From Escherichia coli (GTDB lineage: Bacteria > Pseudomonadota > Gammaproteobacteria > Enterobacterales > Enterobacteriaceae): 64,000 nucleotides of DNA. Below the pieces are notes generated by a model. It was not told the origin of the DNA and ran no database searches. It saw only the letters and a list, made by a program, of their open reading frames with translations. Below are positions 28,598 to 64,000 of this stretch, piece by piece; positions within the stretch are counted from its first letter, which is position 1; the number at the start of each line of letters is the position of its first letter. Both the position numbers and the translations under genes were made by a program. The stretch lies in the NCBI RefSeq assembly GCF_029227855.1, contig NZ_CP074356.1; one strand, written 5' to 3'.

Positions 28598-29521
28598 CTA
28601 GCGCGTTCGCTGTGAAAGCACCTGCTGCTTATCCAGCTTTTGCACCAGCGGCTGCACCACTTTATCCCCATGCTGACCAAAGTATTGATACAGCGTATCG
28701 GACGCACTTTTGGTCAGCACCATAATCTCAATGCGTCGGTTGCCCGCGCTTTGCGGATTTTTCGCGTCCAGCAGCATCTGGTCCGCCATCGCGCTCACCT
28801 GCATCACTTTATCTTCCGGCATTCCGGCCTCTTCCAGCACCCGACGAGCCGAAAGCGCGCGATCGCCCGAAAGGTTCCAGTTGTTGTAGATATTGTTTTT
28901 GTAGGCCATCGCATCGGTATGCCCTGTAATAATAATTTTGTTATCGAGCGAGTCGAACACTGGCGCGAGCTCCACCAGCAAAGTTTTAAAGAACGGCATA
29001 ATCTGTGCGCTGCCGCGTTCAAACATATTGCGGTTCTGGTCATCTTTAATCAGCACGCGCAATCCCTGGGGAACAATCTCCATCTCCAGATTCGCTTCCA
29101 TATGTGCATCACGGGCAATGGTGTTGATACTGGTCGCCAGCTCGCCAAGCTCAGTAGCGGATTTCTTCTTCAGCAGCGCCGTTTTCTCATTGACGTCACG
29201 CGCTTTTTTCTCCGTCTCTTCCGGCACCGCCACGGTGGCAGGTTTTGGCGGATGAGACGGGCTGATTTTATTTAACGGCGACAACCCGCCGCCATTGAAA
29301 ATCGACTGCCCGTGCAGCGCGGCGATAATGCTTTCACGCTCGGATTTACTGACGCTGTTGACAATCCACAGCGTCATAAACAGCGCCATCATTGCCAAAG
29401 TAAAGTCGGCGAACGCCACCTTCCACGCCCCGCCGTGGTGCCCGGCATGATTCTTTTTGATCTGCCGCCGGACGATGGTGGTTTTTGCCCCACGCTCGCG
29501 GCGGTTGCCCGTCTTTCTCAT
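28598..29521 (-). CDS. lafU: Lateral flagellar motor stator protein LafU (MotB-like, OmpA-type C-terminal domain); upstream GTG at 29554 is an alternative start
   Basis: TM helix followed by a peptidoglycan-binding OmpA-like domain; directly downstream of the MotA-like gene. Confidence 0.8.
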   Translation of the reverse strand: MRKTGNRRERGAKTTIVRRQIKKNHAGHHGGAWKVAFADFTLAMMALFMTLWIVNSVSKSERESIIAALHGQSIFNGGGLSPLNKISPSHPPKPATVAVPEETEKKARDVNEKTALLKKKSATELGELATSINTIARDAHMEANLEMEIVPQGLRVLIKDDQNRNMFERGSAQIMPFFKTLLVELAPVFDSLDNKIIITGHTDAMAYKNNIYNNWNLSGDRALSARRVLEEAGMPEDKVMQVSAMADQMLLDAKNPQSAGNRRIEIMVLTKSASDTLYQYFGQHGDKVVQPLVQKLDKQQVLSQRTR

Positions 29522-29523
29522 GC

Positions 29524-30387
29524 TTATTCTTGCTCCAGCATCGCATTCACCCACGCGTCGAGGTTGGCGAAGGTCGGTTTAGATGCCAGATGCAGCAGCT
29601 TACGCCCGGCGTCCACCGCCAGCAGGGTCGGTTTGCCGCCTGCCTGCGCCACCAGCACGGTGCGCACGCATTCCAGCAAAGAATGTTCCGCCCGTGCCTG
29701 TTGTTCCATGGCGTTGGCAAGCGGGTCCATCAGGCAGTAGCAGATAAAGACGCCTAAAAACGTCCCCACCAGAGCCGCCGCCACTTTCAGGCCAATCAGG
29801 GCGATAGATCCATCAATCGACTGCATGGTGATGATGATGCCCAGCACCGCCGCGCAAATACCAAATCCCGGCATCGCTTCGGCAGTACGTTGCAGCGAGC
29901 GCGACGGCGTTAACAGGGACTCTTCCGCGGTGTCCAGTTCCTGATCGAGAGTGCCTTCCAGTTCATGGGCGTCAATCTTGCCCATCGCCATCAGGCGAAA
30001 GTTATCGGCAATAAAGGTCACCAGCCGCTTCTGGGTTAACACCAGCGGGTATTTCTGGAAAACGGTGCTCTCTTCCGGCTGCTCAATATGCTGATCCAGC
30101 ATGCGCAGGCCGCCGTTTTGTACCATTTCAAGCAACTCATACAGGCACATTAATAGCTGACGCTGAAACTCCGGCCCGAGCTGTTTTTTACTGATCACGC
30201 CTTTAATTTGATGGGCAATCTCTTTCAGCACATGTTTCGGGTTACCAATAATCATCGCCCCAAAACCGGCACCCAAAATAATGATCATCTCCGCCGGTTG
30301 CCAGATAGCCACTAATTGCCCGCCCGCTTCAAAATAACCGCCAAATACGCAGCCGAGCACCACCAGTAAACCTAATATTTTTTGCAT
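29524..30387 (-). CDS. lafT: Lateral flagellar motor stator protein LafT (MotA/PomA-like)
   Basis: 287 aa, four TM segments, MotA-like. Confidence 0.85.
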   Translation of the reverse strand: MQKILGLLVVLGCVFGGYFEAGGQLVAIWQPAEMIIILGAGFGAMIIGNPKHVLKEIAHQIKGVISKKQLGPEFQRQLLMCLYELLEMVQNGGLRMLDQHIEQPEESTVFQKYPLVLTQKRLVTFIADNFRLMAMGKIDAHELEGTLDQELDTAEESLLTPSRSLQRTAEAMPGFGICAAVLGIIITMQSIDGSIALIGLKVAAALVGTFLGVFICYCLMDPLANAMEQQARAEHSLLECVRTVLVAQAGGKPTLLAVDAGRKLLHLASKPTFANLDAWVNAMLEQE

Positions 30388-30399
30388 GATTTCTTCACT

Positions 30400-31116
30400 T
30401 TAATTCGGATAGACAAAATCACGAATTTTCTGCGCGATCTGTTTATTCAGTTGACAAATTCGGGCCTCGGTTAGCCCTAATACCAGCGCAATCTCTTTGA
30501 GATTCATCTCATGCTGGTAATACATGGAGAGGATCAGTTGCTCTTTTTCGCTTAATAGTGAAAGCGCGTGTTGCAGCATTTGCTGGGTGACAAACTGATC
30601 TTCCAGTTCCCTGCCAGCAAGTGGAATGCCTGGCCCTTCACCGTTCAGCAGTTCGTCCAGGCTGGCGAGCGTTTCCGCCCCTTCCAGTTGCTGATATTCG
30701 AGATAATCTTCATGCGAAATCCCTTCCACGGCCAGTTCTGACCACTCCGGTTCGTGCCCCAGTTTTTTGCGCGTCTCACGAATCAGATCTTTCATCTGAT
30801 GATATTTCTGTCGCAGCTGGCGCGGTCGCCAGTCGAGAGCGCGCAGCTCATCCAGGATCGCGCCGCGAATCCGGTGCACGGCATAGCCGGCAAAACCTTC
30901 GTCCGGCAGCCCATAGCGACGAATGGCATTAAGCAGCCCCATTAACGCCGTTTGTTCCATATCCTGACGATCAATAATGCAATTACACTGCGGGGCAAGT
31001 TGCCGCACCACTTTACGCACCAGTGGTAAATAGGCCTGCAAGTAGTGGCTCTCCTGCTGCGGGGTTAATACCGGCGTGGCAGCAAATTCTTCTGACTCGA
31101 ATACATCCTGTAGCAT
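30400..31116 (-). CDS. lafS: Lateral flagellar sigma-28-type sigma factor (FliA-like)
   Basis: 238 aa; sigma-70 family regions 2 and 4. Confidence 0.8.
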   Translation of the reverse strand: MLQDVFESEEFAATPVLTPQQESHYLQAYLPLVRKVVRQLAPQCNCIIDRQDMEQTALMGLLNAIRRYGLPDEGFAGYAVHRIRGAILDELRALDWRPRQLRQKYHQMKDLIRETRKKLGHEPEWSELAVEGISHEDYLEYQQLEGAETLASLDELLNGEGPGIPLAGRELEDQFVTQQMLQHALSLLSEKEQLILSMYYQHEMNLKEIALVLGLTEARICQLNKQIAQKIRDFVYPN

Positions 31117-31135: not shown

Positions 31136-31603
31136 TTACTGGAAGACCACTTTTTTCACCAGCAAATCCTTATACGGTGCGCTCATTTTGCGACGTTGAA
31201 GATCTTTCTTTAACGCATCCGAAATCAGTTTGCGGATGGCGGATATTTTCATGCCGCGCAAATCTTCAAATTTCATTTCCGTCAGGCATTCAACTGCAAT
31301 ACTTTGATACAGCGGCTCCTGATGTTTTATTTTTTCCGCTTCTTTGTCACTGGCAACCACCATCACTAATTCCGCCGACAAATAATGGTCCGCGCCGTTG
31401 TTGTCATGCAAAGTGACAATGGTTTCCGGCAACGTCACAAACACGCTTTTGCTTTCATCCAGGGTTTCCACCGTTTCCGTCTGCGCGGCGGCAGTCGGTT
31501 TTCCTTTTCCGGCATAATGATGCCAGACACCCCATCCAGCTCCGGCCCCCACCACCAACGCCAGAACGGCGCTGACCACGCCCGCCACCACGATTTTCTT
31601 CAT
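31136..31603 (-). CDS. lafF: FliL-like flagellar basal-body-associated protein
   Basis: 155 aa; N-terminal TM helix plus FliL-like periplasmic domain. Confidence 0.7.
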   Translation of the reverse strand: MKKIVVAGVVSAVLALVVGAGAGWGVWHHYAGKGKPTAAAQTETVETLDESKSVFVTLPETIVTLHDNNGADHYLSAELVMVVASDKEAEKIKHQEPLYQSIAVECLTEMKFEDLRGMKISAIRKLISDALKKDLQRRKMSAPYKDLLVKKVVFQ

Positions 31604-31610
31604 ATTGCCT

Positions 31611-32672
31611 TTACACTTTGATCAAAACGGATTCGTTCTGTTGAAATTGAGGCGCATCATCAAGCTGTAAGGCGGCACTCACCTCTTCCTGCTGATGGCC
31701 CGACTGTTGTTGTTGCTGCGACTGCCCTTCGGAGGAAACCTGTACGTTCACCTCCATAAAATTTTGCGCCGTCAGATGCTGGCGGAGATCGTCGCTAAAC
31801 TGTTGTAACGCGCGGCAAACTTCACTTTGGTTCGCGCCGATGTGCACCATCAGTTTGCCGTTGTCGAGTTGTACGGCGATCTCGAGCTTGCCAAGCGACG
31901 GTGGATCGAGACGGATGGTGGAGATCTGCTGTTGTTTGTTGAGCTGAAAGTGGATCTGATCTTTCAAAAGCGTCGTTAGTTTCTCGCCCAGTTCGTCCAT
32001 CGAAAGCGTGGCTGGTTTGGCGACAATCTCCTGATGTTCGCTGACCAGATCCGGCGTCTTAACCTGCAACACCGCACGCGCAATAACCGGTTCGCTGTCC
32101 GGCACTTTTTCCGTTTTACGCTCGACCTGCGGGCGCGCGTTCACACGGGTTAGTTCAGGTTTCGGGCGAGCTGGCTGTGTTGAGACGCGCGGCTGCGTCG
32201 GTGCAATGGCATGTAAATCTTCACTGGCGTAAGTCGCCAGTCTGGCCTGCTGTTCAGGTTTCGCCTGCGGCAACTGACTGATCAGCTCCTGCAACTGCGG
32301 CGGCAACGGCGTGAGTTCCTGCTGCTGCGTCGGGCGTTGCGCCGCGTTTTGCACCACCGCTTTCGTCAATTGCTGGATAACCGGCGATGTTGCGACGTTT
32401 CGCGGCTGCGGCGTGTCCTGATGCGGCGCGGCAGGTTGCGGAAGTAACAGCGCCATTAGCGCCTGCATCGCCACCGGATCGTTCTCCTGCGGGCGCGTCG
32501 CCTGTTGCTGACTGGTTTTTGCGCTATGAACGCGCTCCGCCACCGCCGCGACCGCCATTTTCGGCAGGGTAAACGCGGGCGCGTTTTCACCGCTCACCGG
32601 CGGTAAAATATCCGCTTTCAGCGACGCTGTTTCCGCAAGCGTTCCGAGCGTGGCAAGCAATGCCGGATTCAT
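31611..32672 (-). CDS. lafE: Flagellar hook-length control protein (FliK-like)
   Basis: 353 aa; Pro/Gln-rich central region and FliK C-terminal domain (IRLDPPSLGKLEIAV...). Confidence 0.75.
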   Translation of the reverse strand: MNPALLATLGTLAETASLKADILPPVSGENAPAFTLPKMAVAAVAERVHSAKTSQQQATRPQENDPVAMQALMALLLPQPAAPHQDTPQPRNVATSPVIQQLTKAVVQNAAQRPTQQQELTPLPPQLQELISQLPQAKPEQQARLATYASEDLHAIAPTQPRVSTQPARPKPELTRVNARPQVERKTEKVPDSEPVIARAVLQVKTPDLVSEHQEIVAKPATLSMDELGEKLTTLLKDQIHFQLNKQQQISTIRLDPPSLGKLEIAVQLDNGKLMVHIGANQSEVCRALQQFSDDLRQHLTAQNFMEVNVQVSSEGQSQQQQQSGHQQEEVSAALQLDDAPQFQQNESVLIKV

Positions 32673-32980
32673 GACTTCTCCGAAAGTAAATTAACAATTG
32701 AGTAGGCGAGCACACCTTCCTGATGCCGCTGATGCTGTTCCATACGCGCTTTCAACACTTCTGCGCGCTGCTCGCGCCGTTTAATCAGGGCATTAAACGC
32801 GCCGTACAGCTGTGCCTTCACCGCATCCAACTGCGCCGCGTCGGTTTCCGCCGCCGCGTAATCGTGAAACTGGCGCATCAACTGCTGATGCAGTGCCGGA
32901 AGGCGTCGCCAGCGTTGCTTGTCGAGGGCTTCATTCATCGCCTCGACCAATGCGAAAAGTTGCCTGCGTTGTTTTTCCAT
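32669..32980 (-). CDS. lafD: FliT-like flagellar export chaperone (small helical protein)
   Basis: 103 aa helical protein between the FliS-like and FliK-like genes. Confidence 0.5.
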   Translation of the reverse strand: MEKQRRQLFALVEAMNEALDKQRWRRLPALHQQLMRQFHDYAAAETDAAQLDAVKAQLYGAFNALIKRREQRAEVLKARMEQHQRHQEGVLAYSIVNLLSEKS

Positions 32981-32984: not shown

Positions 32985-33377
32985 TTAACCCAGCTTGCCC
33001 GAAAGCCCTTCCCAGCCTTCGCGCAGGTTGCTTAAGATCAGCATCACTTCATCGATTTTCTCTGCCGACAATTCGCCGCTGGCTTCATACAATCGGTAAA
33101 CGCAGTGGTCATAGAGTCGCGAAAGGTTCACCACCAGCTCGCCGCCAGTTTCAAACTCCAGCGAACTGGTGAGCGCATTGAGAATGTCGATGCATTTATT
33201 GATGCTCTGGGCTTTCTTCTCGAAACGCCGCCCTTCAATATGGCTTTTGGCGCGTTCCAGCTCGTCCATCAGGCCAGAAAACAGCACCAGCACCAGTTCC
33301 AGAGGCGATGCCGCCGCAGTACGCGCCGCGAGATCGATCTCTTTATATTGCGAATAGCCGTCCTGTACTTGGTACAT
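32985..33377 (-). CDS. lafC: Flagellin-specific chaperone (FliS-like)
   Basis: 130 aa; FliS-like helical bundle. Confidence 0.75.
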   Translation of the reverse strand: MYQVQDGYSQYKEIDLAARTAAASPLELVLVLFSGLMDELERAKSHIEGRRFEKKAQSINKCIDILNALTSSLEFETGGELVVNLSRLYDHCVYRLYEASGELSAEKIDEVMLILSNLREGWEGLSGKLG

Positions 33378-33399: not shown

Positions 33400-34716
33400 T
33401 TACGCGAATGCCGCCATGCTGGCTTTCATGGTGTACACCTCGACCAGCGTGTTGGTGTACTCCTCGAGATAACGGTCGTAGTTGGCGTTATAGGTATCAG
33501 TAAGCTGATCGCCTTCGTCCTGAATTTTGCTCATCTGATCGTCAATGTTCTGCTGGCGCAGGGTGATGATGCCGTTGCTGGAGTCCGTGTAGGTGTTAAT
33601 CAGGTCGTCCATCTGCGCTACCATGCTGTTGTCGCCAACGAAAATAGAGGTCAGACCGTCAGGATTTTTCGCCATTTCGTCGTTGAACTGGTCGGAGTCA
33701 ATCTGTAAGTGGCCGTGAGAATCGAGGGTGATGCCATAGTCAACAATCGACACGCCGTTGTAGCTGACATGGGCGATGTCATCGAGCTGGTTCGCCAGTG
33801 AACTGAGTCCGGCGTCGCCTGCAAATACCCCGGCGCTGGTACTGTCATCACCGTGAGTGGTTAGCGAATCAACCGTATCGATCAGGGTGTTATAGGCATC
33901 GACAAAGGTCTGCACTTTCTCCTGGCTGGCGCTGGAATCTTCGCTAATGTTAAAGGTAGTGAGGTCGCTGTCAGAATCGCTGACTTCGGTGAAAGTCATG
34001 GTGACGCCGGGGATCACATCATCAAACGTATTGCTGCTGTTTGTGATCTCAGGCCCCGTGGCGCTGCCAAGATGAATAATCGCGTCCTGAGCGGAGGAAA
34101 CATCCGTGGCAACGGGCGCGCTGGTGCTATCGTTGCTGCCGTCATGCCCCGTTACGCTCACCGAAAATGCGCTCTGCGCCCCGGTGCTATCGGAGGTGAG
34201 CATAATCGTGGTGGTGCCGTCGGTTTTTACCAGTGCCGCCGACACGCCCGGATTGTCATCAGAGTCGTTAATCGCATTCACCAGCTCGCTGGCGTCGATA
34301 AAACCGTCGCCGTCACCGTTCTGATCTGCCGCCGACAGATCAATATCCATGGTGCTGTCGCCCATCGTCAGTTCAAAAGTGCCGGTGGCGGAAAAGGTGT
34401 CGTCGCCCATACTGAACGTGGTTTGCTGCCCCTGCGCCAGTTGCTCAACGAAAAACGAGTAGCTTCCCGCCTGTGCCTGCGAGTTAGCGGAAACGGTCGC
34501 CGAGTCATTATTGCTGGTGGCGGCAAACGTCACCGGGCCGTCAGTATCGCTGTTCAGCGCGTCAACGGCGCTCTGAAAATCGCTCAACGCTGAGCTGAGC
34601 GAGTCCAGGCCGCTGCTTTCAGCGTCCAGCTCGGTCTGCTTCTCCTGCAAATTTGCCGCCTGGGTGGCGACATCCGCATAAGCAATTTCTTGCGCAATGG
34701 TTCTTGGGTTAATCAT
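33400..34716 (-). CDS. lafB: Flagellar filament cap protein (FliD-like)
   Basis: 438 aa; position between flagellin and the FliS-like gene. Confidence 0.75.
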   Translation of the reverse strand: MINPRTIAQEIAYADVATQAANLQEKQTELDAESSGLDSLSSALSDFQSAVDALNSDTDGPVTFAATSNNDSATVSANSQAQAGSYSFFVEQLAQGQQTTFSMGDDTFSATGTFELTMGDSTMDIDLSAADQNGDGDGFIDASELVNAINDSDDNPGVSAALVKTDGTTTIMLTSDSTGAQSAFSVSVTGHDGSNDSTSAPVATDVSSAQDAIIHLGSATGPEITNSSNTFDDVIPGVTMTFTEVSDSDSDLTTFNISEDSSASQEKVQTFVDAYNTLIDTVDSLTTHGDDSTSAGVFAGDAGLSSLANQLDDIAHVSYNGVSIVDYGITLDSHGHLQIDSDQFNDEMAKNPDGLTSIFVGDNSMVAQMDDLINTYTDSSNGIITLRQQNIDDQMSKIQDEGDQLTDTYNANYDRYLEEYTNTLVEVYTMKASMAAFA

Positions 34717-34851
34717 TGATGACTCCGGGTAACGATGTCAGGTTAATGGCAAAAGGCGTGCCAATATTTTTTATGTGAATAATCAATAGATTGAAAAACA
34801 GGCGGAAATGACGTTTCCGGTCTGGCGGAAAAAAGCCTGCCGCAGAAAGCA

Positions 34852-34920: not shown

Positions 34921-35835
34921 TTACTGCAGCAGGCTGGAAACCATGCTGGACATGCTGTTGGACTGTTTCAGCATGGTGATGCCGGTCTGCATCAGCACCT
35001 GTTGTTTGGTCATGTTGGACGCTTCCGTCGCGTAGTCGGTATCCATGATGTTACCGATAGCAACTTCGGTGTTGTCCTGCATGCTGGTCAGGTTATTAGC
35101 CGTGTCGTTCAGACGGTTGATAGACGCACCCAGTTTGGACTGGATCTGAGACACGTCATCCATCGCGGTAGAGATGCTGGTGATCATCTGGTTAGCCGAG
35201 CCAGACGCAGTCAGCTCAGTACCGCCAGAAACGCCTGCGGTGCCCGTGGTGTCAGCCTGATCCGCACTAAAGGAGCTGCTGATAGCAGAAAGATCAGTCA
35301 CCAGGGTATTCAGCTGGCTTGAAATATTCACGGTCATGGTGTCGGAAGATTCCGCGCCCACCTGGAAAGTTACCGCGCTCTGGAACAGACCGTCAGTACC
35401 GGTGTTGCTGGTGCCGGAAACACCGAACAGGTTGGTGCCGCCGTAAGTGGTGTTTTGCAGCATGTCAGACATCTGCTGGCCCAGTTCGTCGTATTCGTCC
35501 TGCATCGCCTGCAGGTCGTCGTCGCTGTAGGTGCCGTTCGCTGCCTGAGTTGACAGGTCTTTCATACGACCCAGCACGTCAGACATTTCGTCGAACATGC
35601 TGTCAGCGGTTTGCAGCATCGCGGTGGCATCATTGATGTTGCTCAGCGCCACCCCCATACCGCTGGACTGTGCTGTCAGACGGTTAGCAATTTGTTTGCC
35701 TGCGGCGTCATCGGCAGAAGAGTTAATCCGGTTACCTGTCGCCAGGCGTTCCATAGATGTAGACAGAGAAGAGCTGCTTTTGCTGATTGCATTAACGGCG
35801 GCCATTGAGGCGTTATTGGTGTTAATAGATAACAT
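34921..35835 (-). CDS. lafA: Lateral flagellin
   Basis: Flagellin N-terminus MLSINTNNASMAAVNAI and C-terminal ...SLLQ; RBS AAGGAG; the track ORF has a 22-codon upstream extension. Confidence 0.9.
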   Translation of the reverse strand: MLSINTNNASMAAVNAISKSSSSLSTSMERLATGNRINSSADDAAGKQIANRLTAQSSGMGVALSNINDATAMLQTADSMFDEMSDVLGRMKDLSTQAANGTYSDDDLQAMQDEYDELGQQMSDMLQNTTYGGTNLFGVSGTSNTGTDGLFQSAVTFQVGAESSDTMTVNISSQLNTLVTDLSAISSSFSADQADTTGTAGVSGGTELTASGSANQMITSISTAMDDVSQIQSKLGASINRLNDTANNLTSMQDNTEVAIGNIMDTDYATEASNMTKQQVLMQTGITMLKQSNSMSSMVSSLLQ

Positions 35836-36271: not shown

Positions 36272-37165
36272 ATGCAAAGCACTATCAGGAAACATTTATC
36301 CCTTGCTAAGGTAAACTCAACTATGAGTATTATTATCAACAACTGGCGGATGGACCCGTCGCTTAATGCCTTAATACATTGCGAAACGGGTGAAACACGT
36401 CGTCTCGGCGAATACCATTTTATTTTGCTGGAAACATTAGCAAAAAATGCCGATGTGGTTTTATCGCGATCTTATTTATGTGCCGAAGTATGGAAGAACC
36501 GCATTGTCGGCGGTAACAGCCTGCCGACGGCGATCCACGCTCTGCGCGTTGCCATTGATGATGACGGCAAGCAACAGAACATTATTAAAACTATCCCGAA
36601 AAAAGGGTACCTGTGCAATAAAGAGTATGTGTCTTTGCCGGAGTCATCGCCTGCGGAAGCGCTGATTATTACCGACCAGATACAGGAAACAGTACCAGAA
36701 GAGATATCTTCTACAACACCGCCTGTGCCTGTTAGAAAAAAACATAAAGGACTGATGGGGTTAGCGTTGACCGCGGCTGTTATATTTATTGGCTCGACCG
36801 TGGGGTATTCACACTTGAAAAGTACACCTGACGCCCCGCAACTGGTAAAAGAGTCAATTAACAGTCCAAGAATAAAAATATTTCATCTTAGTTCTGGAAA
36901 AGAAAATAATTCCGCACCGTTACTGTCACAAACCCTCGCACCAGGAAAAGACAAACTCGATAATTTATTGTCAGCGCATAATATGACAATGACAACCTAT
37001 TATAAATATGTTCGTAACCGACTGGAGAGTGATATTGTTCTGCGCAACCAGTGCAATGGTAGCTGGCAATTAACCTTTAATGTGGATGAGTGGCAGAATA
37101 GCGATATTAATAGCGCGATGTATCAGAATTTAGAGAAGTTGTTAAATACTGTGCAGAAATGCTGA
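36272..37165 (+). CDS. lafZ: Membrane-anchored transcriptional regulator with ToxR/CadC-type winged-helix DNA-binding domain; alternative start at 36323
   Basis: N-terminal OmpR/PhoB-type DNA-binding domain, one TM segment, C-terminal periplasmic domain. Confidence 0.65.
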   Translation: MQSTIRKHLSLAKVNSTMSIIINNWRMDPSLNALIHCETGETRRLGEYHFILLETLAKNADVVLSRSYLCAEVWKNRIVGGNSLPTAIHALRVAIDDDGKQQNIIKTIPKKGYLCNKEYVSLPESSPAEALIITDQIQETVPEEISSTTPPVPVRKKHKGLMGLALTAAVIFIGSTVGYSHLKSTPDAPQLVKESINSPRIKIFHLSSGKENNSAPLLSQTLAPGKDKLDNLLSAHNMTMTTYYKYVRNRLESDIVLRNQCNGSWQLTFNVDEWQNSDINSAMYQNLEKLLNTVQKC

Positions 37166-52355: not shown

Positions 52356-52410
52356 ATTTAACATAGCCAAACGGCAGACGGCATCATCTTCTCTCACCGC
52401 GGGAATTAAA

Positions 52411-54592: not shown

Positions 54593-55295
54593 CCTGAGAC
54601 TCCGGCGTTAGGGTTTCTTTCAGTGCGGTCATGCACTGTTCCAGGCGATGCTCGCAGCCGATATCCAGTTCTGATTTATCAGTGATCACCCGGCATTCCC
54701 CCGGCGGCAGATCCGGCGAAGGCGTCAGCCCCCATTCACTGACCTTTTCCGGCACCGCGTCGCGCAGGCGGTTAAATTCTTCCGTGCTCAGCATTACTTG
54801 CAGGGTCTCCGGCATCGCCGGGAAGGCCGCCAGTGCCTCTTCCACCAGCGCCAGCAACTGCGTCGGTTGCAGCGCCAGTTCGCAGCGGATCACCTGGCGG
54901 GTGACTTTTTCCACCAGTTGCAACAAATCTTCCCGCTGTTTACGTTCGATATGGGCGAGGAAGTCGTTCACTTTTCCGGTGATGGCTTCCAGCGGCTGCG
55001 CCGCCTCAACAAACTGTTTGCGCCCTTCATGCTGCCCGGCGAGGCTGCCTTCGGTGTAACCCTGGCGTCGCCCCTCGGCAAAACCTTGCTGATGACCTTC
55101 GCTAAAGCCCTGCTCCTGACCTTCGGTCATTCCCTGAGCAAAGCCTTTTTGCAGCCCTTCCTGAAAACCGTCCATCAACTGGCGCTGGTAATCGGCGGCG
55201 CTGATGCTGGCGGTGAGCGGTTCTCCGGTCACCGCACGCTGGCGCGGCGGGAAACGATGCAGGCGATAGCGCCCGCGCAGTGTTTCAATGGTCAT
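54585..55295 (-). CDS. lfiH: Flagellar assembly protein (FliH-like)
   Basis: 236 aa; overlaps the lfiI start. Confidence 0.7.
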   Translation of the reverse strand: MTIETLRGRYRLHRFPPRQRAVTGEPLTASISAADYQRQLMDGFQEGLQKGFAQGMTEGQEQGFSEGHQQGFAEGRRQGYTEGSLAGQHEGRKQFVEAAQPLEAITGKVNDFLAHIERKQREDLLQLVEKVTRQVIRCELALQPTQLLALVEEALAAFPAMPETLQVMLSTEEFNRLRDAVPEKVSEWGLTPSPDLPPGECRVITDKSELDIGCEHRLEQCMTALKETLTPESQGE

Positions 55296-56309: not shown

Positions 56310-57933
56310 TGCTGGTGATCCATTGTCTGAGAACTTCGGCTACGCGATCGGTGTCGCTCATGGCCAGTTTTTGCAGGAACTCGAGTTTCACTTCGAGGCC
56401 GGAACTCTGGGACGGCAGGCTGTCATCGCCGGGCAGCGACGGCAGGTCGACGTTTTTGCGCTCCTCTTCCGGCATGGCAATCCACGGTTCGCTGACAGCT
56501 TCCGGTTCTGGTGTGATAACCGGCGCACGCACCGCCGTCAGGCGTTTCATTACCGGGCGCACCACAAAGAACAGCAACAACAGCGCCAGCAGGCCGCAGC
56601 CAATCAGGCGTACCCAGGCCAGCACGCTGTCATCTTTCCACAGCGGAATAATTGGTTCGACCGGCACCGCCTGCGGGACAAAGTTAAGCAGCGATAAGGT
56701 GAGATTGTCACCGCGCTGGACGTCGATCCCGGCGGCATTGTTCAGCAACGCGGTCAGTTGCGCAGTCTGCTCCGGCTTCCAGTTTTTCAGCGCCGGGGCG
56801 TTTTGATTGAGCACCACCGCCACGTTGAGGCGTTTCACCGCAAAACCAGGATGCTGAATATGCTGGACGCTGCGGTCGTAAGAGTAATCGCGCTTGCTTT
56901 CGCTGTGTTTGGATAACGCTTCCGGTGAGCGGTTTTCTTCCGTACCGTTGGTCATCTGATTCGCCGCAACTGGCGGACGGTTGCTGAGTGAACCGGGCAC
57001 GCCCATCGCCACCTGATTGGTGTCGCTGTCCAGCACGCTCTCTTCGCGGTTGATTTTCGGCGCGTCGCCGTAGTGTTCCTGGGTTTCGTCGATGGTACTG
57101 AGGTCGAGATCCGGCATCACGCTGACGCGGTAATTCCCCGTACCAACCAGCGAATCCAGCACGTTCGCCACGCTGGCGCGGGTTTTGTCCTGAATATCTT
57201 TGAGGATCTGATCGCGTTTACGGGTTGCGGCAGAAACCGCCTCGCCTGCGCCAATGCCGTCGGTCAGCAGATTTCCCGCCTGATCGACGACGCTGACTTT
57301 GCTGGCCTGTAGCCCCGGAATACTGCCGGACACCAGATGCATAATGGCGTTGACCTGGTCCATATTCAGCTTCGCGCCATAGTGCAGGCGCACCACTACC
57401 GAGGCGCTGTTTTGTGGCTCATCGCTGACCACAAACGAGCTTTCTTCGTTGAGCGCCAGATGCACCCGTGCGCTCTCCACCGCGTCCAGCGACATAATGC
57501 TCTGCGCCAGCTCCCCTTCGAGGCTGCGTTTGTAGCGCACGTTCTGCACGAACTGGCTGCTGCCGAGCACTTCGTCTTTGTCCATCAGCTCGTAGCCGCT
57601 GGGCAATATCGCCTGCACACCTTTGGCGGCAAGGGTCATGCGCGTTTTCGACAGTTCACCTTCCGGCACCAGTATCTGCCCGCTCTGCGGGTCGATGCGA
57701 TAGCTGAGCTTTTCGCCGTCCAGCACGGTGACAATCTGCGACACGGGCAGATTTTCCTGGCGTCCGTAGAGCGAGACGTAGCCGCGATTACCGGTCCACA
57801 GCACACTAACGATAATCGCCGTTGCCGCCACGGCAAGCCCCACTCCCGCCATCAACGCCCAGCGTTTGTTATCTGCGAGGCGCAGTCGAAACGCCGGAAA
57901 CGCCTGGGTTAACTTCTTTATTTGTGCATTCAT
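56287..57933 (-). CDS. lfiF: Flagellar MS-ring protein (FliF-like)
   Basis: 548 aa; two TM segments flanking a large periplasmic region. Confidence 0.85.
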   Translation of the reverse strand: MNAQIKKLTQAFPAFRLRLADNKRWALMAGVGLAVAATAIIVSVLWTGNRGYVSLYGRQENLPVSQIVTVLDGEKLSYRIDPQSGQILVPEGELSKTRMTLAAKGVQAILPSGYELMDKDEVLGSSQFVQNVRYKRSLEGELAQSIMSLDAVESARVHLALNEESSFVVSDEPQNSASVVVRLHYGAKLNMDQVNAIMHLVSGSIPGLQASKVSVVDQAGNLLTDGIGAGEAVSAATRKRDQILKDIQDKTRASVANVLDSLVGTGNYRVSVMPDLDLSTIDETQEHYGDAPKINREESVLDSDTNQVAMGVPGSLSNRPPVAANQMTNGTEENRSPEALSKHSESKRDYSYDRSVQHIQHPGFAVKRLNVAVVLNQNAPALKNWKPEQTAQLTALLNNAAGIDVQRGDNLTLSLLNFVPQAVPVEPIIPLWKDDSVLAWVRLIGCGLLALLLLFFVVRPVMKRLTAVRAPVITPEPEAVSEPWIAMPEEERKNVDLPSLPGDDSLPSQSSGLEVKLEFLQKLAMSDTDRVAEVLRQWITSNERIDNK

Positions 57934-57937: not shown

Positions 57938-58279
57938 TTAGATCGACATACTCATCAGATCGTTAAATCCGGTGGCGATTTTGTTGCGCACCTGCACCAG
58001 CGCGGAGAACGAGAGCGACGCCTGCTGGCTGGCGATCATCGCACCTGCCAGGTCATCACTTTTGCCCGTGTCGACAGCCGTTTGCTGCTGCTCTGCCACC
58101 TGCTGGAACTGGTCTACGTGACCGAGCGCGCCACTCATAATGCGGTTAAACGAAACGTCAGGATTGGTGGAACTGAAGGTCATGGCGGGCAGCACCGGCG
58201 CCTGGGCGTTGGCCTGCATCCGCTGCACGTCCTGCATGATTTGCGCCTGCATGGTGCTGTTGATTGTGGTAATGCTCAT
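57938..58279 (-). CDS. lfiE: Flagellar hook-basal body protein (FliE-like)
   Basis: 113 aa; first gene after the regulator. Confidence 0.75.
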   Translation of the reverse strand: MSITTINSTMQAQIMQDVQRMQANAQAPVLPAMTFSSTNPDVSFNRIMSGALGHVDQFQQVAEQQQTAVDTGKSDDLAGAMIASQQASLSFSALVQVRNKIATGFNDLMSMSI

Positions 58280-58293: not shown

Positions 58294-59280
58294 TCAGGAG
58301 AAAACTTCGATACCTTGCTTGCGCATGGAGGCCAGTCGATAGCGCAGTGCGCGCGGGGTAATGCCTAACAGGTTGGCGATTTTGCTGCGGTTGCCCTGAT
58401 ATTTACGCATCAGGTCGGCGATATATTGATATTGCGCGCTTCGTCCGTGCTGGCCTAAATCGCAGGTTTCAGCAATGTGGACGGCGGGCTGAACAGGCCA
58501 TTGCAGTTCGCTGCGGTCGGCAACGTCCGTTTCCGGCAGGCCTAAGGCGTCCGGGTAAATTACGCCGTCGCGGTTTAAAATCATTCCCCGCTGAATGGCG
58601 TTCTCCAGCTGGCGCACGTTGCCGGGCCAGCGGTAATTGAGCAGCGCCCGGCGGGTAGATTCTGAAAGGGTGATATTTTTCACCAGCACCGTGGAGTATT
58701 TTTTAATAAATGACTCTGCCAGCGGAATAATATCGTTCAGACGTTCACGCAGCGGCGGCATGGTAATAGGGATTACCGCAAGACGATAATAGAGATCTTC
58801 ACGAAAACGCCCTTCGGCGACTTCCTGCTCAAGGTTTTTATTGGTACAGGCAATCAGGCGAAAATTGAGTTTAATTTGTCGGTTGCTGCCTAATCGCTCA
58901 ACCTGCTGTTCCTGCAATACGCGTAATATTTTGACCTGTAGCGCCAGCGGCATATCGCCAATTTCATCGAGCAATAAGGAGCCGTTATTCGCCAGTTCCA
59001 TTTTTCCTGGCACGCTGGCAATTGCGCCGGTAAATGCACCTTTGTCGTAGCCAAATAAGGTAGATTCCAGCATATTTTCCGGGATCGCCGCGCAGTTCAC
59101 GCCGACATAGGGTGCGCTTTCATTTTCACCAAAGGCTACGGTGTGAATATATTTTGCCACGCACTCTTTGCCCGCGCCGGTTTCGCCCTGAATGAGCACC
59201 GGCACGTTAAAGGCGGCGACACGCTTTGCCAGAGTAAAAGCGTTAATGCTGGAAGCGGCAGTTGCAATAAGTTCAGACAT
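58294..59280 (-). CDS. lafK: Sigma-54-dependent transcriptional activator (AAA+ domain plus C-terminal HTH; no receiver domain in the called ORF)
   Basis: Walker A GETGAGKE, GAFTGA motif, C-terminal Fis-type HTH; the ORF starts directly at the AAA+ domain. Confidence 0.8.
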   Translation of the reverse strand: MSELIATAASSINAFTLAKRVAAFNVPVLIQGETGAGKECVAKYIHTVAFGENESAPYVGVNCAAIPENMLESTLFGYDKGAFTGAIASVPGKMELANNGSLLLDEIGDMPLALQVKILRVLQEQQVERLGSNRQIKLNFRLIACTNKNLEQEVAEGRFREDLYYRLAVIPITMPPLRERLNDIIPLAESFIKKYSTVLVKNITLSESTRRALLNYRWPGNVRQLENAIQRGMILNRDGVIYPDALGLPETDVADRSELQWPVQPAVHIAETCDLGQHGRSAQYQYIADLMRKYQGNRSKIANLLGITPRALRYRLASMRKQGIEVFS

Positions 59281-59433
59281 AGGGTGAACGATATAAGTAG
59301 CGACAGAAAACAGGATGTTCTGAAGCGTATCACCGGCGGGATTAACAAGTTCGAATTAAACGATAATAAAAATATTATTTGATGGTAAACAATGAGTTAG
59401 ATATTAATACTGTTAATTGCGACATCTGTGATG

Positions 59434-59472
59434 CCCCCTCACCCTAACCCTCTCCCCGGATGGGGCTAGGGG
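59434..59472. repeat. GC-rich imperfect palindrome (CCCCCTCACCCTAACCCTCTCCCC..GGGGCTAGGGG)
   Basis: Inverted copy of the motif at 49721-49751, in the lafK-lfiM divergent intergenic region. Confidence 0.4.
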
Positions 59473-59652
59473 ACAGACCGCAGACTGATTGGCGAAAATC
59501 ACTCCCATTAAGCAATTAATCGATTAATTATTTTTTCATCCTATTAATAATTTGCCCCTTTCACTCCCCCTCTATTTAATACCTCACCTTGTGTCACTGC
59601 CGGATTTGCGTGCACAAAATCGCCCATACCATTACAGCAGAGAAAGTAAGCC

Positions 59653-60504
59653 ATGCTGAAGTACAGTAAAACGCCAGGCATCTTTAAATTAGAAGGTAAT
59701 CGGCTCGGACGCCCCTACCATCGCCTGCCGACCCTGTTTACGGGGAATTTTGACGTGATTGATTCGCATCTGGGCAGCTACTTTCTCAAAAAGCATCGCA
59801 GCAATATCACCTTAAAAAAGATTGGCTGCGAAATGGATATTATTAATAAAAACGCCGAACTGATGGTTTCCCAGGTCGGGCATCTGGCGTTTGATATTGA
59901 TCGCTCCTTGCTGTTAATGCTGCTGGGCAATTTTTATGGTCTGGAGTCGTCTCTTGAAGAGGCGAAAGCCCATAACGGGTTGCCGACCAAAACCGAAACG
60001 CGTTTAAAAAACCGTCTGGCGCTGGATATCTGCACGCTGATATTTAATCTGCAAACCTCCGGTATTGCGCTGAAATTAAAACTGGACAGCAGCACGGTGA
60101 TTACCCACTGGGCGTATCAATTAACCTTTACCCTTGCGGACGATGAAGAGAGCAGTTTTCGTATTTTGCTCGACGACGCCCACACCGATTTTATTTTGAA
60201 TCTGATCCGCCACAGCGAGCACAGTAAACCGCAGCAGGTGGCGAAATCCGTTAATAAACCGGCCCTGATTAAAGAAATCATCCGCTCCCTGCCGCTGACC
60301 CTGAACGTCAAAATCGCCGAACTGTCGCTGAATGTCGCGGATCTCACGCAGATAAAAGCCGGGGATATTTTACCCATCTCGCTGGGAGAAACGTTCCCGG
60401 TGGCGATTGGGCAATCTGAATTATTTAGCGCCCTGATTGTGGAAGACAAAGACAAACTGTTTTTGTCGGAGCTGGCGGGCAAAAATGAGAATAGCCATGA
60501 GTAA
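59653..60504 (+). CDS. lfiM: Flagellar motor switch protein (FliM-like, short form)
   Basis: 283 aa; first gene of the fliMNPQR-flhBA-type operon. Confidence 0.75.
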   Translation: MLKYSKTPGIFKLEGNRLGRPYHRLPTLFTGNFDVIDSHLGSYFLKKHRSNITLKKIGCEMDIINKNAELMVSQVGHLAFDIDRSLLLMLLGNFYGLESSLEEAKAHNGLPTKTETRLKNRLALDICTLIFNLQTSGIALKLKLDSSTVITHWAYQLTFTLADDEESSFRILLDDAHTDFILNLIRHSEHSKPQQVAKSVNKPALIKEIIRSLPLTLNVKIAELSLNVADLTQIKAGDILPISLGETFPVAIGQSELFSALIVEDKDKLFLSELAGKNENSHE

Positions 60505-60868
60505 GCAAGAAGATATTTTAGCCGGGGATTTTGGCCTCACCGATGAAGTTGCGCCTGTCGCGAAATCCGCCGACGCTGAAACGCTGGTCACCCGCCTGGA
60601 AGACCGCTTTTCCGACTCGATGACGCTGTTGAAACGCATTCCGGTGACCTTAACGCTGGAAGTGTCGTCGGTGGAAATTATGTTAGCCGACCTGCTAAAC
60701 ATCGACGACGACACGGTGATTGAGCTGGATAAACTCGCCGGGGAGCCGCTGGATATTAAAGTGAACAATATCCTGCTGGGCAAAGCAGAAGTGGTGGTGG
60801 TCAACGAGAAGTACGGCCTGCGCGTGCTGGAGTTTAACACCCGCGATATCAACGACCTGGCACCATGA
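60497..60868 (+). CDS. lfiN: Flagellar motor switch protein (FliN-like)
   Basis: 123 aa from MSKQEDIL; SpoA-type C-terminal domain; start overlaps the lfiM stop; track ORF starts at 60437. Confidence 0.75.
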   Translation: MSKQEDILAGDFGLTDEVAPVAKSADAETLVTRLEDRFSDSMTLLKRIPVTLTLEVSSVEIMLADLLNIDDDTVIELDKLAGEPLDIKVNNILLGKAEVVVVNEKYGLRVLEFNTRDINDLAP

Positions 60869-61617
60869 AACGCCGCACTCAACTGACGCTCGGCCTTGGG
60901 CTGCTGGCGCTTGCGCCGCTGGCGTTAGCCCAGGGTGGCGATATTGCGCTGCTTAACGTGGTCACCCACGGCAACACTCAGGAGTACAGCGTCAAAATCC
61001 AGGTGCTGATTCTGATGACCCTCGTCGGTTTGCTGCCGACGATGGTGCTGATGATGACCTGCTTTACGCGCTTTATTATCGTGCTGTCGCTGCTGCGCCA
61101 GGCGCTGGGGCTGCAACAAACGCCGCCAAACCGCATTCTGATTGGTATTGCGCTCTCCCTCACCATGCTGGTGATGCGCCCTATTTGGCTCAATATTTAC
61201 GACCACGCGGTGGTGCCGTTTGAAAACGATCAGATTACCCTAACCGATGCGTTAAACACCGCCGCGACGCCGCTGAAACGCTTTATGCTGGCGCAGACCG
61301 ACAAAAAAGCGATGGCGCAAATCATGACCATCGGCGGCGCGAAGGGCAATGCCGCCGACCAGGATCTCACGATTGTGGTGCCTGCCTATGTGTTGAGCGA
61401 ACTGAAAACCGCTTTCCAGATTGGCTTTATGATTTACATCCCGTTTCTGGTTATCGACCTGATTGTCGCCAGCGTACTGATGGCGATGGGGATGATGATG
61501 CTGTCGCCGCTGATTGTTTCGCTGCCCTTTAAACTGATGCTGTTTGTGCTGATCGACGGCTGGTCGCTGACCATCGGCACGCTCACCACCAGCATTCGCG
61601 GGCTGGGGCTGGGCTGA
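60865..61617 (+). CDS. lfiP: Flagellar export apparatus protein (FliP-like)
   Basis: 250 aa membrane protein with signal sequence. Confidence 0.9.
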   Translation: MKRRTQLTLGLGLLALAPLALAQGGDIALLNVVTHGNTQEYSVKIQVLILMTLVGLLPTMVLMMTCFTRFIIVLSLLRQALGLQQTPPNRILIGIALSLTMLVMRPIWLNIYDHAVVPFENDQITLTDALNTAATPLKRFMLAQTDKKAMAQIMTIGGAKGNAADQDLTIVVPAYVLSELKTAFQIGFMIYIPFLVIDLIVASVLMAMGMMMLSPLIVSLPFKLMLFVLIDGWSLTIGTLTTSIRGLGLG

Positions 61618-61619: not shown

Positions 61620-61892
61620 ATGTTGACCGTAGACGTAGCCGCCGACATTGTCGCCAGCGGCATTAAAGTAGTGATTTTGCTGGTTTCGGTACTGGTAGTG
61701 CCAAGCTTGCTGGTTGGCCTGCTGGTGAGCGTGTTCCAGGCGGTGACGCAGATTAACGAACAGACCCTGAGTTTTTTGCCGAGGCTGATTGTCACGCTGG
61801 TGGTGCTGGGCGTGTGCGGTAAATGGATGATTATCCAGTTGCATGATCTGTGCATTCATCTGTTTACCCAGGCCGCCCTGCTGGTGCATTAA
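61620..61892 (+). CDS. lfiQ: Flagellar export apparatus protein (FliQ-like)
   Basis: 90 aa, two TM helices. Confidence 0.85.
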   Translation: MLTVDVAADIVASGIKVVILLVSVLVVPSLLVGLLVSVFQAVTQINEQTLSFLPRLIVTLVVLGVCGKWMIIQLHDLCIHLFTQAALLVH

Positions 61893-61893
61893 G

Positions 61894-62676
61894 ATGCGCA
61901 CAAGCGACGTTACGCAACTGATGGATCTGGCGCTGGGGCTGTGGTTTCCCTTCGTGCGCATTATGGCGTTTCTGCGCTATGTGCCGGTGCTGGATAACAG
62001 CGCCCTGACCGTGCGCGTGCGGATTATTTTGTCGCTGGCGCTGGCAATCATCATCACGCCGTTGATCCCCCATCCCATTCCCCACGATCTGCTTTCACTC
62101 AACAGCCTGATCCTGACGGTGGAGCAAATTTTATGGGGCATGTTGTTCGGGCTGATGTTTCAGTTTCTGTTTCTCGCGCTACAACTGGCCGGACAAATTC
62201 TCTCGTTCAATATGGGGATGAGCATGGCGGTGATGAACGACCCGAGCAGCGGCGCATCGACCACCGTGCTGGCGGAGTTAATCAACGTCTATGCGATCCT
62301 GCTGTTTTTTGCCATGGACGGGCATCTGCTGCTGGTAAGCGTGCTGTATAAGGGCTTCACCTACTGGCCGATTGGTAACGCGCTGCATCCGCAAACCCTG
62401 CGCACCATCGCGCTGGCCTTTAGCTGGGTGCTGGCGTCCGCATCACTGCTGGCGCTGCCGACCACCTTCATCATGCTGATTGTGCAGGGCTGCTTTGGCC
62501 TGCTCAACCGCATCGCGCCGCCGCTGAACCTCTTTTCGCTCGGCTTTCCCATCAACATGCTGGCGGGGCTGGTTTGCTTTGCCACCCTGCTCTACAACCT
62601 GCCGGATCACTATCTGCATCTGGCGAATTTTGTGTTGCAGCAACTCGACGCGCTGAAAGGTCACTATGGCGGATAG
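61894..62676 (+). CDS. lfiR: Flagellar export apparatus protein (FliR-like)
   Basis: 260 aa multi-TM protein from MRTSDVTQL; track ORF starts at 61843. Confidence 0.8.
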   Translation: MRTSDVTQLMDLALGLWFPFVRIMAFLRYVPVLDNSALTVRVRIILSLALAIIITPLIPHPIPHDLLSLNSLILTVEQILWGMLFGLMFQFLFLALQLAGQILSFNMGMSMAVMNDPSSGASTTVLAELINVYAILLFFAMDGHLLLVSVLYKGFTYWPIGNALHPQTLRTIALAFSWVLASASLLALPTTFIMLIVQGCFGLLNRIAPPLNLFSLGFPINMLAGLVCFATLLYNLPDHYLHLANFVLQQLDALKGHYGG

Positions 62677-63805
62677 CAGCAGCGAAGAAAAAACAGAGAA
62701 ACCCTCGGCGCAAAAGCTGCGTAAAGCGCGTGAAGAGGGGCAACTGCCGCGCTCGAAGGATATGGGGCTGGCAGCGAGCCTGTTTGCAGCGTTTGTGGTG
62801 ATCTCCAGCAGTTTTCCGTGGTATGCCGATTTTGTGCGCGAGAGTTTTATCAGCGTGCATCAGTACGCGCAGGAGATTAATAACCCGCAGGTGATCGGTC
62901 AGTTTCTGCGCCACCACCTGTTAATTCTCGGCAAGTTTATCCTTACGTTGCTGCCGATGCCCGCCGCCGCGCTGCTCTCTTCGCTGGTGCCGGGCGGCTG
63001 GCTGTTTCTGCCGAAAAAAATCCTCCCGGATTTCAGCAAAATTAGCCCGTTAAAAGGCATTGGGCGTCTGTTTTCCAGTGAACATCTGGCGGAAACGGGA
63101 AAGATGACGGTGAAGTCTGCCGTGGTGCTGGTGATGCTGTGGGTAAGCCTGCGCAATAACTTTGCCGCCTTTCTCGGCCTGCAGGCGCTGCCGTTCAAAC
63201 TGGCGATGAATGACGGTTTGTCGCTCTACGCCAGCGTGATGCGCAACTTTGTCATCCTGTTTATTTTCTTTGCGCTTCTCGACGTGCCGCTGGCGAAAGC
63301 CCTGTTCACCAAAGGGCTGAAGATGACCAAACAAGAACTGAAAGAAGAGTACAAAAATCAGGAAGGCAAGCCGGAAGTGAAGGCGCGCGTGCGGCGGCTG
63401 CAACGGCAGCTGGCGATGGGGCAAATTCGCAAAGTGGTGCCAAAGGCCAACGTGGTGATCACCAACCCGACCCACTACGCCGTGGCGTTGCAGTATGACC
63501 AGTCGCGTGCCGCCGCGCCGTTTGTGGTGGCGAAAGGCACCGATGAAATCGCCCTCTATATTCGCCAGGTCGCTGCTGAAAGTCAGGTGGAAGTGGTCGA
63601 GTTCCCGCGGCTGGCGCGCTCGGTTTACTATACCACTCAGGTGAATCAGCAAATTCCTTTTCAGCTTTACCGGGCTATCGCCCACGTTCTGACCTACGTC
63701 CTGCAAATGAAACACTGGCGCGAGGGCGCACAGCCGCGCCCGGCCCTGAACAGACATATTTCCATTCCCAAAGAGGTGCTTAAACTGGATGGCGAAAACA
63801 ACTAA
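62666..63805 (+). CDS. lfhB: Flagellar export apparatus switch protein (FlhB-like)
   Basis: 379 aa; NPTH autocleavage motif (VVITNPTHYAVAL). Confidence 0.9.
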   Translation: MADSSSEEKTEKPSAQKLRKAREEGQLPRSKDMGLAASLFAAFVVISSSFPWYADFVRESFISVHQYAQEINNPQVIGQFLRHHLLILGKFILTLLPMPAAALLSSLVPGGWLFLPKKILPDFSKISPLKGIGRLFSSEHLAETGKMTVKSAVVLVMLWVSLRNNFAAFLGLQALPFKLAMNDGLSLYASVMRNFVILFIFFALLDVPLAKALFTKGLKMTKQELKEEYKNQEGKPEVKARVRRLQRQLAMGQIRKVVPKANVVITNPTHYAVALQYDQSRAAAPFVVAKGTDEIALYIRQVAAESQVEVVEFPRLARSVYYTTQVNQQIPFQLYRAIAHVLTYVLQMKHWREGAQPRPALNRHISIPKEVLKLDGENN

Positions 63806-64000
63806 ATCGTTCCTCGCGCTGCTGCGCGGCGGCAATCTCGGCGTGCCGCTGGTCATTCTATGCATTCTGGCAATGGTTATTCTGCCGCTGCCGCCTGCGC
63901 TGCTGGATATTCTGTTCACCTTCAACATTGTGCTGGCGGTGATGGTGCTGCTGGTGGCGGTGTCAGCGAAAAGGCCGCTGGAATTCAGCCTGTTCCCGAC
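63789..64000 (+). CDS. lfhA: Flagellar export gate protein (FlhA-like), N-terminal part; 3' end outside window
   Basis: MAKTTKSFLALLRGGNLGVPLVILCILAMVILPLPP..., FlhA-like N-terminal TM region; start overlaps the lfhB end. Confidence 0.85.
   Translation, partial: MAKTTKSFLALLRGGNLGVPLVILCILAMVILPLPPALLDILFTFNIVLAVMVLLVAVSAKRPLEFSLFP

Follow-up and report, generated by a model that had tools for sequence, protein, structure and literature searches.

The question raised by this locus is whether Escherichia coli may possess, besides its primary flagella, a second flagellar system in working order. It lies in a stretch of 64 kb of the E. coli chromosome (64,000 nucleotides, nt; hereafter the window), in which positions 28598-64000 are taken up by contiguous, densely packed flagellar genes that run up to the window end. 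The original prediction, made from the sequence alone, had described this region as an apparently complete, lateral-type Flag-2 cluster of more than 40 genes that may be functional. We are highly confident that it is the E. coli Flag-2 locus, the ancestral second flagellar cluster of the lateral (laf) type at its usual site next to dinB, with all 41 visible genes intact. The locus is already known and common, and what the window holds is an ordinary intact allele; Flag-2 of the enteroaggregative strain E. coli 042 was reportedly described by Ren et al. in 2005 (J Bacteriol 187:1430), and surveys of Flag-2 now extend over the Enterobacterales.

The window was searched with the translations of the 43 genes annotated in the Flag-2 region of 042. 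Full-length matches with no premature stop were obtained for 41 of these queries, at 93.5-100% protein identity, and 40 of the 41 align in a single frame. The exception is lfgC, for which the 042 query is itself frameshifted and matches in two pieces, while lfgC of the window is a single clean open reading frame (ORF) of 143 codons. The remaining two queries, a RelE/helix-turn-helix toxin-antitoxin pair present as cargo in 042 between lafZ and lafW, have no match in the window. Each of the 41 ORFs reaches its stop at the expected length, from an ATG start (n = 38) or a GTG start (n = 3), and no frameshift, nonsense mutation or disruption by an insertion sequence (IS) can be recognized among them. 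In total there are 38 complete core genes (of 39), three flagellin-modification genes, and the beginning of lfhA, which is cut by the window end. The features are given below, with sizes in amino acids (aa); unless stated otherwise, entries are based on alignment with the 042 protein and a check of ORF and start, and names are partly those annotated in strain JNEC-KY178, the nearest sequenced relative.

28598-29521, minus strand: lafU, MotB-like stator subunit, 307 aa; ATG start, 99.3% full-length match to 042 LafU
29524-30387, minus strand: lafT, MotA-like stator subunit, 287 aa; TIGR03818 (MotA1), 374 bits (cut-off 303.8)
30400-31116, minus strand: lafS, sigma-28 (FliA-type) factor, 238 aa; NF009091, 444.9 bits (cut-off 339)
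31136-31603, minus strand: lafF, FliL-family protein, 155 aa; 100% to the 042 protein, JNEC-KY178 annotation
31611-32672, minus strand: lafE, FliK-type hook-length control protein, 353 aa; 042 alignment and annotation
32669-32980, minus strand: lafD, small protein in the FliT position, 103 aa; 95% full-length match to 042
32985-33377, minus strand: lafC, FliS flagellin chaperone, 130 aa; 100% to 042, annotation
33400-34716, minus strand: lafB, FliD filament cap, 438 aa; 042 alignment and annotation
34921-35835, minus strand: lafA, lateral flagellin, 304 aa; 99.7% to 042 LafA
36323-37165, plus strand: lafZ, ToxR/CadC-like membrane-anchored winged-helix regulator, 280 aa; 042 alignment, domain matches
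37220-38197, minus strand: lafW, Flag-2-specific putative hook-associated protein, 325 aa; 98.8% full-length to 042
38214-39143, minus strand: lfgL, hook-filament junction protein, 309 aa
39158-40534, minus strand: lfgK, hook-filament junction protein, 458 aa
40611-40910, minus strand: lfgJ, rod-binding domain only, 99 aa
40910-42010, minus strand: lfgI, P-ring, 366 aa
42025-42690, minus strand: lfgH, L-ring, 221 aa, GTG start
42773-43558, minus strand: lfgG
43585-44322, minus strand: lfgF
44322-45524, minus strand: lfgE, hook
45548-46261, minus strand: lfgD, hook cap
46261-46692, minus strand: lfgC, 143 aa, intact here
46695-47030, minus strand: lfgB
47112-47849, plus strand: lfgA, P-ring chaperone
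47930-48205, plus strand: lfgM, anti-sigma-28, 91 aa; FlgM annotated in JNEC-KY178
48218-48646, plus strand: lfgN, chaperone, GTG start
48774-49703, plus strand: lafV, FliB-like flagellin lysine-N-methylase, 309 aa, variable region 1; annotation
49810-52281, plus strand: large glycosyltransferase, 823 aa, variable region 1; Pfam
52411-52815, minus strand: TagD-like glycerol-3-phosphate cytidylyltransferase, 134 aa, variable region 1; De Maayer et al. 2020 and TIGR01518
52818-53252, minus strand: lfiJ
53255-54592, minus strand: lfiI, export ATPase, GTG start; Walker A AGSGVGKS, Walker B LLLVDS
54585-55295, minus strand: lfiH
55299-56309, minus strand: lfiG
56287-57933, minus strand: lfiF, MS-ring
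57938-58279, minus strand: lfiE
58294-59280, minus strand: lafK, sigma-54 enhancer-binding activator, 328 aa; Pfam and motifs
59653-60504, plus strand: lfiM
60497-60868, plus strand: lfiN
60865-61617, plus strand: lfiP
61620-61892, plus strand: lfiQ
61894-62676, plus strand: lfiR
62666-63805, plus strand: lfhB, 379 aa; NPTH autocleavage motif at residue 267
63789-64000, plus strand: lfhA (FlhA export gate), truncated at the window end after 70 codons, the translation of which is identical to the start of the 697-aa FlhA of JNEC-KY178

Order and strands of these genes, with lfhA represented by its first 70 codons, are those of 042 and of the published three-cluster layout, lfhAB-lfiRQPNM-lafK-lfiEFGHIJ / lfgNMABCDEFGHIJKL / lafWZABCDEFSTU, with variable region 1 in between (De Maayer et al. 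2020). Variable region 1 (48774-52815, between lfiJ and lfgN) holds the three modification genes, and variable region 2, between lafZ and lafW, is empty, so that no cargo or effector genes are present in this allele. On these grounds the Flag-2 identity of the region between dinB and the window end and the number of its genes (41 complete and the start of lfhA) agree with the original prediction, the functional classes that it named (stator, sigma-28 factor, flagellin, chaperones, hook, rod and rings, export apparatus, sigma-54 activator) are all represented, and its observation that the called ORFs look intact is borne out by the comparison with 042, which revealed no truncation or frameshift in any of the 41 genes. 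The term "apparently complete" holds for 38 of the 39 core genes; it does not extend to lfhA, which starts at 63789 and has only 70 of its 697 codons inside the window.

Family models support the same identification. For LafA, LafU, LafT and LafS the scores are higher than the curated cut-offs of NCBIfam: LafU with NF005273 (579.6 bits, cut-off 383) and LafA with NF033376, lat_flg_LafA_1 (664.4 bits versus a cut-off of 440), the score of LafA with the second model, NF038071 (LafA_2), being 280.6 bits and below the cut-off of 365. Key residues are in place: LafU has the AFADF motif with the conserved Asp at residue 39 of a MotB-type channel, followed by an OmpA-like C-terminus; LfhB has NPTH, LfiI has Walker A and B, and LafK has Walker A and GAFTGA. 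In LafK the Pfam Sigma54_activat domain spans residues 6-172 and is followed by an AAA lid and a Fis-type HTH_8 domain (284-317); there is no N-terminal receiver domain, and NtrC-type families align only from the central domain onward. LafZ gives weak CadC and OmpR-family DNA-binding matches at residues 24-127 and contains a hydrophobic segment at about 153-171. Neither LafD nor LafW matched any NCBIfam family; their respective FliT and hook-associated roles are those assigned by De Maayer et al. 2020, and near-identical LafW sequences are variously named in RefSeq as "hook-associated protein", "hypothetical protein" or "FlhF". Among the modification proteins, LafV has a weak match to NF038110 (43 bits, below the cut-off of 85), the large glycosyltransferase combines an N-terminal GT2 domain (PF00535, 4.8e-17) with a weak TagB/F-like glycerophosphotransferase region (PF04464, 0.0066), and the TagD-like protein matches TIGR01518 at 1.5e-32 with 112 bits, below the cut-off of 165; its gene is the last of the lafK-lfiE..J transcription unit.

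A further line of evidence comes from the regulatory DNA. A search of the 64 kb for the sigma-54 core TGGCAC-N5-TTGC returned two perfect matches (0.4 expected), ahead of lafB and lfgB and on the correct strand:

34749-34763, minus strand: sigma-54 promoter-like site TGGCACGCCTTTTGC, 33 nt upstream of the lafB start
47068-47082, minus strand: sigma-54 promoter-like site TGGCACGGTAATTGC, 38 nt upstream of the lfgB start

At the lafB site the TGGCAC and TTGC blocks are unchanged in eight of eight other strains, and at the lfgB site all eight retain GG and GC, the core elements. In Vibrio parahaemolyticus an RpoN site is predicted at the same position of lafB, and RpoN binds the lateral flgB promoter (PMC9817140). 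The locus would thus encode a sigma-54-dependent activator, LafK, together with matching predicted sigma-54 promoters on its flagellar operons; a 9/10 sigma-54-like site is also found by lafV, at 48724-48738. Scanning with the sigma-28 consensus TAAAG-N13-16-GCCGATAA (at least 11 of 13 matches) gave four matches, all of them intragenic and none upstream of lafA or of the motor genes; a sigma-28 promoter at lafA is not claimed, the scan being empty there and the -10 element poor. Generic scans for sigma-70 promoters and terminators yielded counts near the shuffle expectation or modestly higher, and were not used except for a terminator-like hairpin downstream of lafA (34819-34803).

The sequences also carry the mark of selection. 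For 40 genes compared with 042, the synonymous divergence (dS) is 0.115 and the nonsynonymous divergence (dN) 0.0086, with dN/dS = 0.075 and a value for each gene of at most about 0.3; this ratio indicates sustained purifying selection. The glycosyltransferase is the most divergent gene with respect to 042 (about 94% protein identity), and its dN/dS is 0.142, computed on an alignment with offset indels in which the two lengths are equal. In comparison with JNEC-KY178 and 042, this gene shows a 15-nt in-frame length difference at 50571, which corresponds to one versus two copies of a direct repeat of the CAGGCGATC... type.

How ordinary the allele is can be judged from its distribution. Counting as positive any genome that holds at least 80% of window positions 28000-52000, Flag-2 is present in 1264 of 5426 complete E. 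coli genomes (23%), in agreement with the published frequency of 24% (De Maayer et al. 2020). MG1655, O157:H7, UTI89 and nearly all other negatives match the window only from 28000 to about 29366; in K-12 the scar consists of a truncated lafU that abuts a 5'-truncated FlhA pseudogene, which confirms the statement of the original prediction that only lafU and lfhA remnants persist at this site, and no such deletion is found in the window. In eight other Flag-2-positive genomes, surveyed for intact copies, the state of the genes is as follows:

AHB5: no Flag-2 gene disrupted
no107: no Flag-2 gene disrupted; IS621 in an intergenic spacer
A41: no Flag-2 gene disrupted
S103EC: no Flag-2 gene disrupted
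042: lfgC frameshift
JNEC-KY178: lafU nonsense mutation and lfhB frameshift
TUM14759: lafU and lafK frameshifts
2013C-4081: lfgK internal stop

Intact alleles are thus common (4 of the 8 strains sampled), and since the lesions differ between lineages they are recent and independent. The most informative comparison is that with JNEC-KY178, to which the whole window aligns as a single block (NZ_AP045174.1, 99.964% identity) with nine differences over 64 kb, six substitutions and three indels. At 29423 the window has C, and the T of JNEC-KY178 turns Trp33 of lafU into a stop; at 63531 the window has a C that is missing in JNEC-KY178, whose lfhB therefore carries a -1 frameshift. The other differences include a 1-nt indel at 36216 in the lafA-lafZ control region, one substitution in LafW and the 15-nt indel in the glycosyltransferase gene. 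That two of the nine differences inactivate Flag-2 genes of JNEC-KY178 suggests, unless they are assembly errors, very recent decay of, or selection against, the system in that strain. We also considered whether lafU of the window is short or damaged, as might be supposed from the 259-aa annotation of JNEC-KY178, and rejected this, because lafU of the window is an uninterrupted ORF of 307 codons that begins with ATG, and the difference is a nonsense single-nucleotide change in JNEC-KY178. Taken together, strong long-term purifying selection, frequent independent recent knock-outs and recurrent deletion of the whole locus suggest a costly, conditionally useful organelle.

What such an organelle might look like in this strain, with respect to its regulatory cascade, modification chemistry, expression and assembly, we infer by homology with the lateral systems of Vibrio and Aeromonas. 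LafK with sigma-54 would activate the lfgB operon (rod, hook, rings) and the lafB operon (cap, chaperones, FliK and FliL homologues, LafS, and the stator LafT/LafU). The apparatus would be assembled from the export gate LfhA/B with LfiP/Q/R, the ATPase complex LfiH/I/J, the MS and C rings LfiF/G/M/N, and the rod and hook. LfgM would keep LafS inactive until the finished hook-basal body exports LfgM, upon which LafS would transcribe lafA. The flagellin LafA would probably be lysine-methylated by LafV, and probably carries a glycerol-phosphate-containing glycan added by the GT2/TagF-like enzyme, with the TagD-like cytidylyltransferase supplying cytidine diphosphate (CDP)-glycerol; the MotA/MotB-type stator LafT/LafU would then turn the filament. 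A candidate for the input regulator is LafZ, which resembles CadC/ToxR and has a single predicted membrane span. As there is no receiver domain in LafK, the step under control is probably the synthesis of LafK rather than its phosphorylation.

Does this allele work? Intact ORFs and motifs, predicted sigma-54 promoters and low dN/dS are what speaks for the suggestion that it may be functional; they leave it a possibility, which is also as far as the original prediction went, and several observations weigh against it. Completeness is unproven from the window, because 90% of the essential lfhA lies beyond base 64000. There is no convincing sigma-28 promoter for lafA, where by eye only a -35-like TAAGTTT element and a degenerate -10 can be recognized, and the divergent region between lafK and lfiM gave no sigma-54 match at 8/10 or better, so that no such site was found for either of the two operons. 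The disruption of four of the eight comparison strains, each in a different way, shows how readily the locus is lost. Finally, the only functional test of an intact Flag-2 of E. coli that was found in the literature, carried out at 28 or 37 °C with strain EC958 (ST131) in broth or soft agar, showed no LafA protein and no motility that depended on Flag-2 (PMC4637896).

This last result bears directly on the alternative that survives best, namely that the locus is coding-intact and cryptic, transcriptionally silent in nature, a recent survivor on its way to decay or deletion. Besides the silence of EC958, the two inactivated genes of JNEC-KY178, only nine differences away, the independent lesions in half of the strains sampled, and the absence of the locus from about 77% of E. 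coli genomes are all as one would expect if this were the case. In addition, the control regions between lafA and lafZ and between lafK and lfiM are rich in AT, the kind of DNA that is silenced by H-NS, and silencing may be supposed here as well. On the other side, a dN/dS of 0.075 across 40 genes is hard to square with permanent silence, as is the conservation of the sigma-54 promoter cores, and literature reports describe swarming driven by Flag-2 in Plesiomonas and low-temperature expression of Flag-2 in Yersinia enterocolitica. We regard the cryptic state as a serious possibility, although its probability stays clearly short of even. Within the AT-rich lafK-lfiM region, a G+C-rich, partly palindromic, repeat-like element (…CACCCTAACCCTCTCCCCGGATGGGGCTAGGGGAC…) is found at 59430-59480.

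A second alternative is that the system fails through a defect other than a broken visible ORF: in the part of lfhA beyond 64000, in a damaging missense change, or in a regulatory lesion. The truncation of lfhA by the window end leaves room for this, single-gene lesions specific to individual strains are frequent, and among the indels with respect to JNEC-KY178 one falls in the lafA-lafZ control region (36216) and another in the glycosyltransferase gene. Still, all eight strains inspected, JNEC-KY178 among them, have an intact lfhA, protein identities to other strains are high (93.5-100%), and every motif that was checked is present; we therefore consider a hidden defect improbable. The argument from JNEC-KY178 is in itself unsafe, because two other Flag-2 genes are inactivated in that strain. 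A third alternative, raised as a possibility for the Flag-2 systems of Enterobacterales by De Maayer et al. 2020, is that the apparatus serves mainly for something else than movement, for instance to secrete proteins or to adhere; in its favour, substrates that are not flagellar can be secreted by flagellar type III export systems. We consider this alternative very improbable, since a stator with its proton-channel Asp, a switch, a filament, a cap and modification genes, all under purifying selection, are unneeded for secretion alone, and no cargo or effector genes accompany them, variable region 2 being empty.

Against these alternatives, the reading of the region as an intact Flag-2 allele is retained, and we put forward only tentatively, as clearly less likely than not, that the allele could build proton-driven, glycerol-phosphate-decorated lateral flagella, for example at low temperature, on viscous surfaces or upon induction of LafK. 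If the proposal is true, this would be the first demonstrated working second flagellar system in E. coli. As the allele is compact and free of frameshifts, IS elements and cargo, it is a clean candidate for asking whether, and why, E. coli expresses Flag-2.

The genomic setting is that of the E. coli chromosome throughout; ahead of the flagellar cluster the genes run ecpE-pao-...-thrW-proAB-phoE-crl-frsA-gpt-pepD-(prfH/rtcB remnants)-yafPON-dinB. The G+C content of the cluster region averages about 55%, which fits the positive G+C deviation published for Escherichia Flag-2 loci (De Maayer et al. 2020). The neighbouring features are:

27472-28527, minus strand: dinB, which directly adjoins the cluster (lafU stop at 28598)
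25465-26019 (approximate), minus strand: short remnants of prfH and rtcB, as in K-12
17497-17572: tRNA-Thr(CGT), at which a small low-G+C island (42-46% G+C) is inserted that carries the next two entries
11104-12793, minus strand: AbiEii/AbiEi toxin-antitoxin (abortive infection) pair
13109-14884 (591 aa) and 14799-16316 (505 aa), plus strand: overlapping ORFs matching one PADLOC profile, RT_UG5-nitrilase, a defence-associated reverse transcriptase

At the spot of the prfH and rtcB remnants, 042 has both genes intact and two additional genes. The genes that flank the cluster, the thrW island included, are identical between the window and JNEC-KY178, in whose annotation the island at the tRNA has only an integrase remnant. 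The two overlapping ORFs correspond to positions 9-515 (N-terminal half) and 502-901 (C-terminal half) of the RT_UG5-nitrilase profile and are annotated alike in JNEC-KY178; they represent either a gene split by a frameshift or a two-ORF form. In the lfg operon, the spacers at 40535-40610, 42691-42772, 43559-43584 and 45525-45547 (76, 82, 26 and 23 nt) are the shortest among the inspected strains; other strains have 60-250 nt extra at the same junctions, or a copy of IS621, and these spacers look like insertion hot spots for small repeats and IS elements.

Among known systems the closest is Flag-2 of 042, which has the same site next to dinB, the same gene order and orientation, 96.6% nucleotide identity over 24 kb together with the protein identities given above for 41 genes, and the same variable region 1 with lafV, the large GT2 glycosyltransferase and the TagD-like enzyme. 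The two differ in lfgC, which is intact in the window and carries in 042 a frameshift that has been reported (PMC2808357); in the RelE/helix-turn-helix pair between lafZ and lafW, which only 042 has; in extra intergenic inserts of 60-150 nt in the lfg operon of 042, which the window lacks; and in the length of LfgD, LafK and LfgM (+3, +2 and -1 residues in the window). JNEC-KY178 is closer still in sequence, and is set apart by the lafU stop and the lfhB frameshift, neither of which occurs in the window.

With the primary peritrichous flagella of E. coli (Flag-1), the cluster shares the structural and export components (homologues of FlhA/B, FliE-R and FlgA-N). It differs in being a single locus rather than dispersed regions, in relying on LafK and sigma-54 instead of the FlhDC master regulator, in the short flagellin (304 aa), in the lack of FliO, and in LfgJ, whose 99 residues comprise the rod-binding part without the muramidase domain.

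Also among the closest known systems are the lateral systems of V. parahaemolyticus and Aeromonas hydrophila, and the regulatory hierarchy of such systems is known from work of the McCarter laboratory. Like Flag-2, they are dedicated second flagellar sets with their own LafK, their own sigma-28/anti-sigma pair, a short flagellin LafA and a MotA/MotB-type stator LafT/LafU. In them as in Flag-2, the cluster lacks FliO and chemotaxis genes, and sigma-54 sites occur at the flgB and lafB positions. This likeness is drawn from the literature and from family models. The differences can be summarized as follows: the enterobacterial LafA fits the LafA_1 model and falls below the LafA_2 cut-off; no motY-like gene was seen in the E. 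coli cluster; surface-induced expression and swarming have been shown in Vibrio and Aeromonas, and not in E. coli; and the E. coli locus is one contiguous cluster, to which lafW, lafZ and the modification genes of variable region 1 are added.

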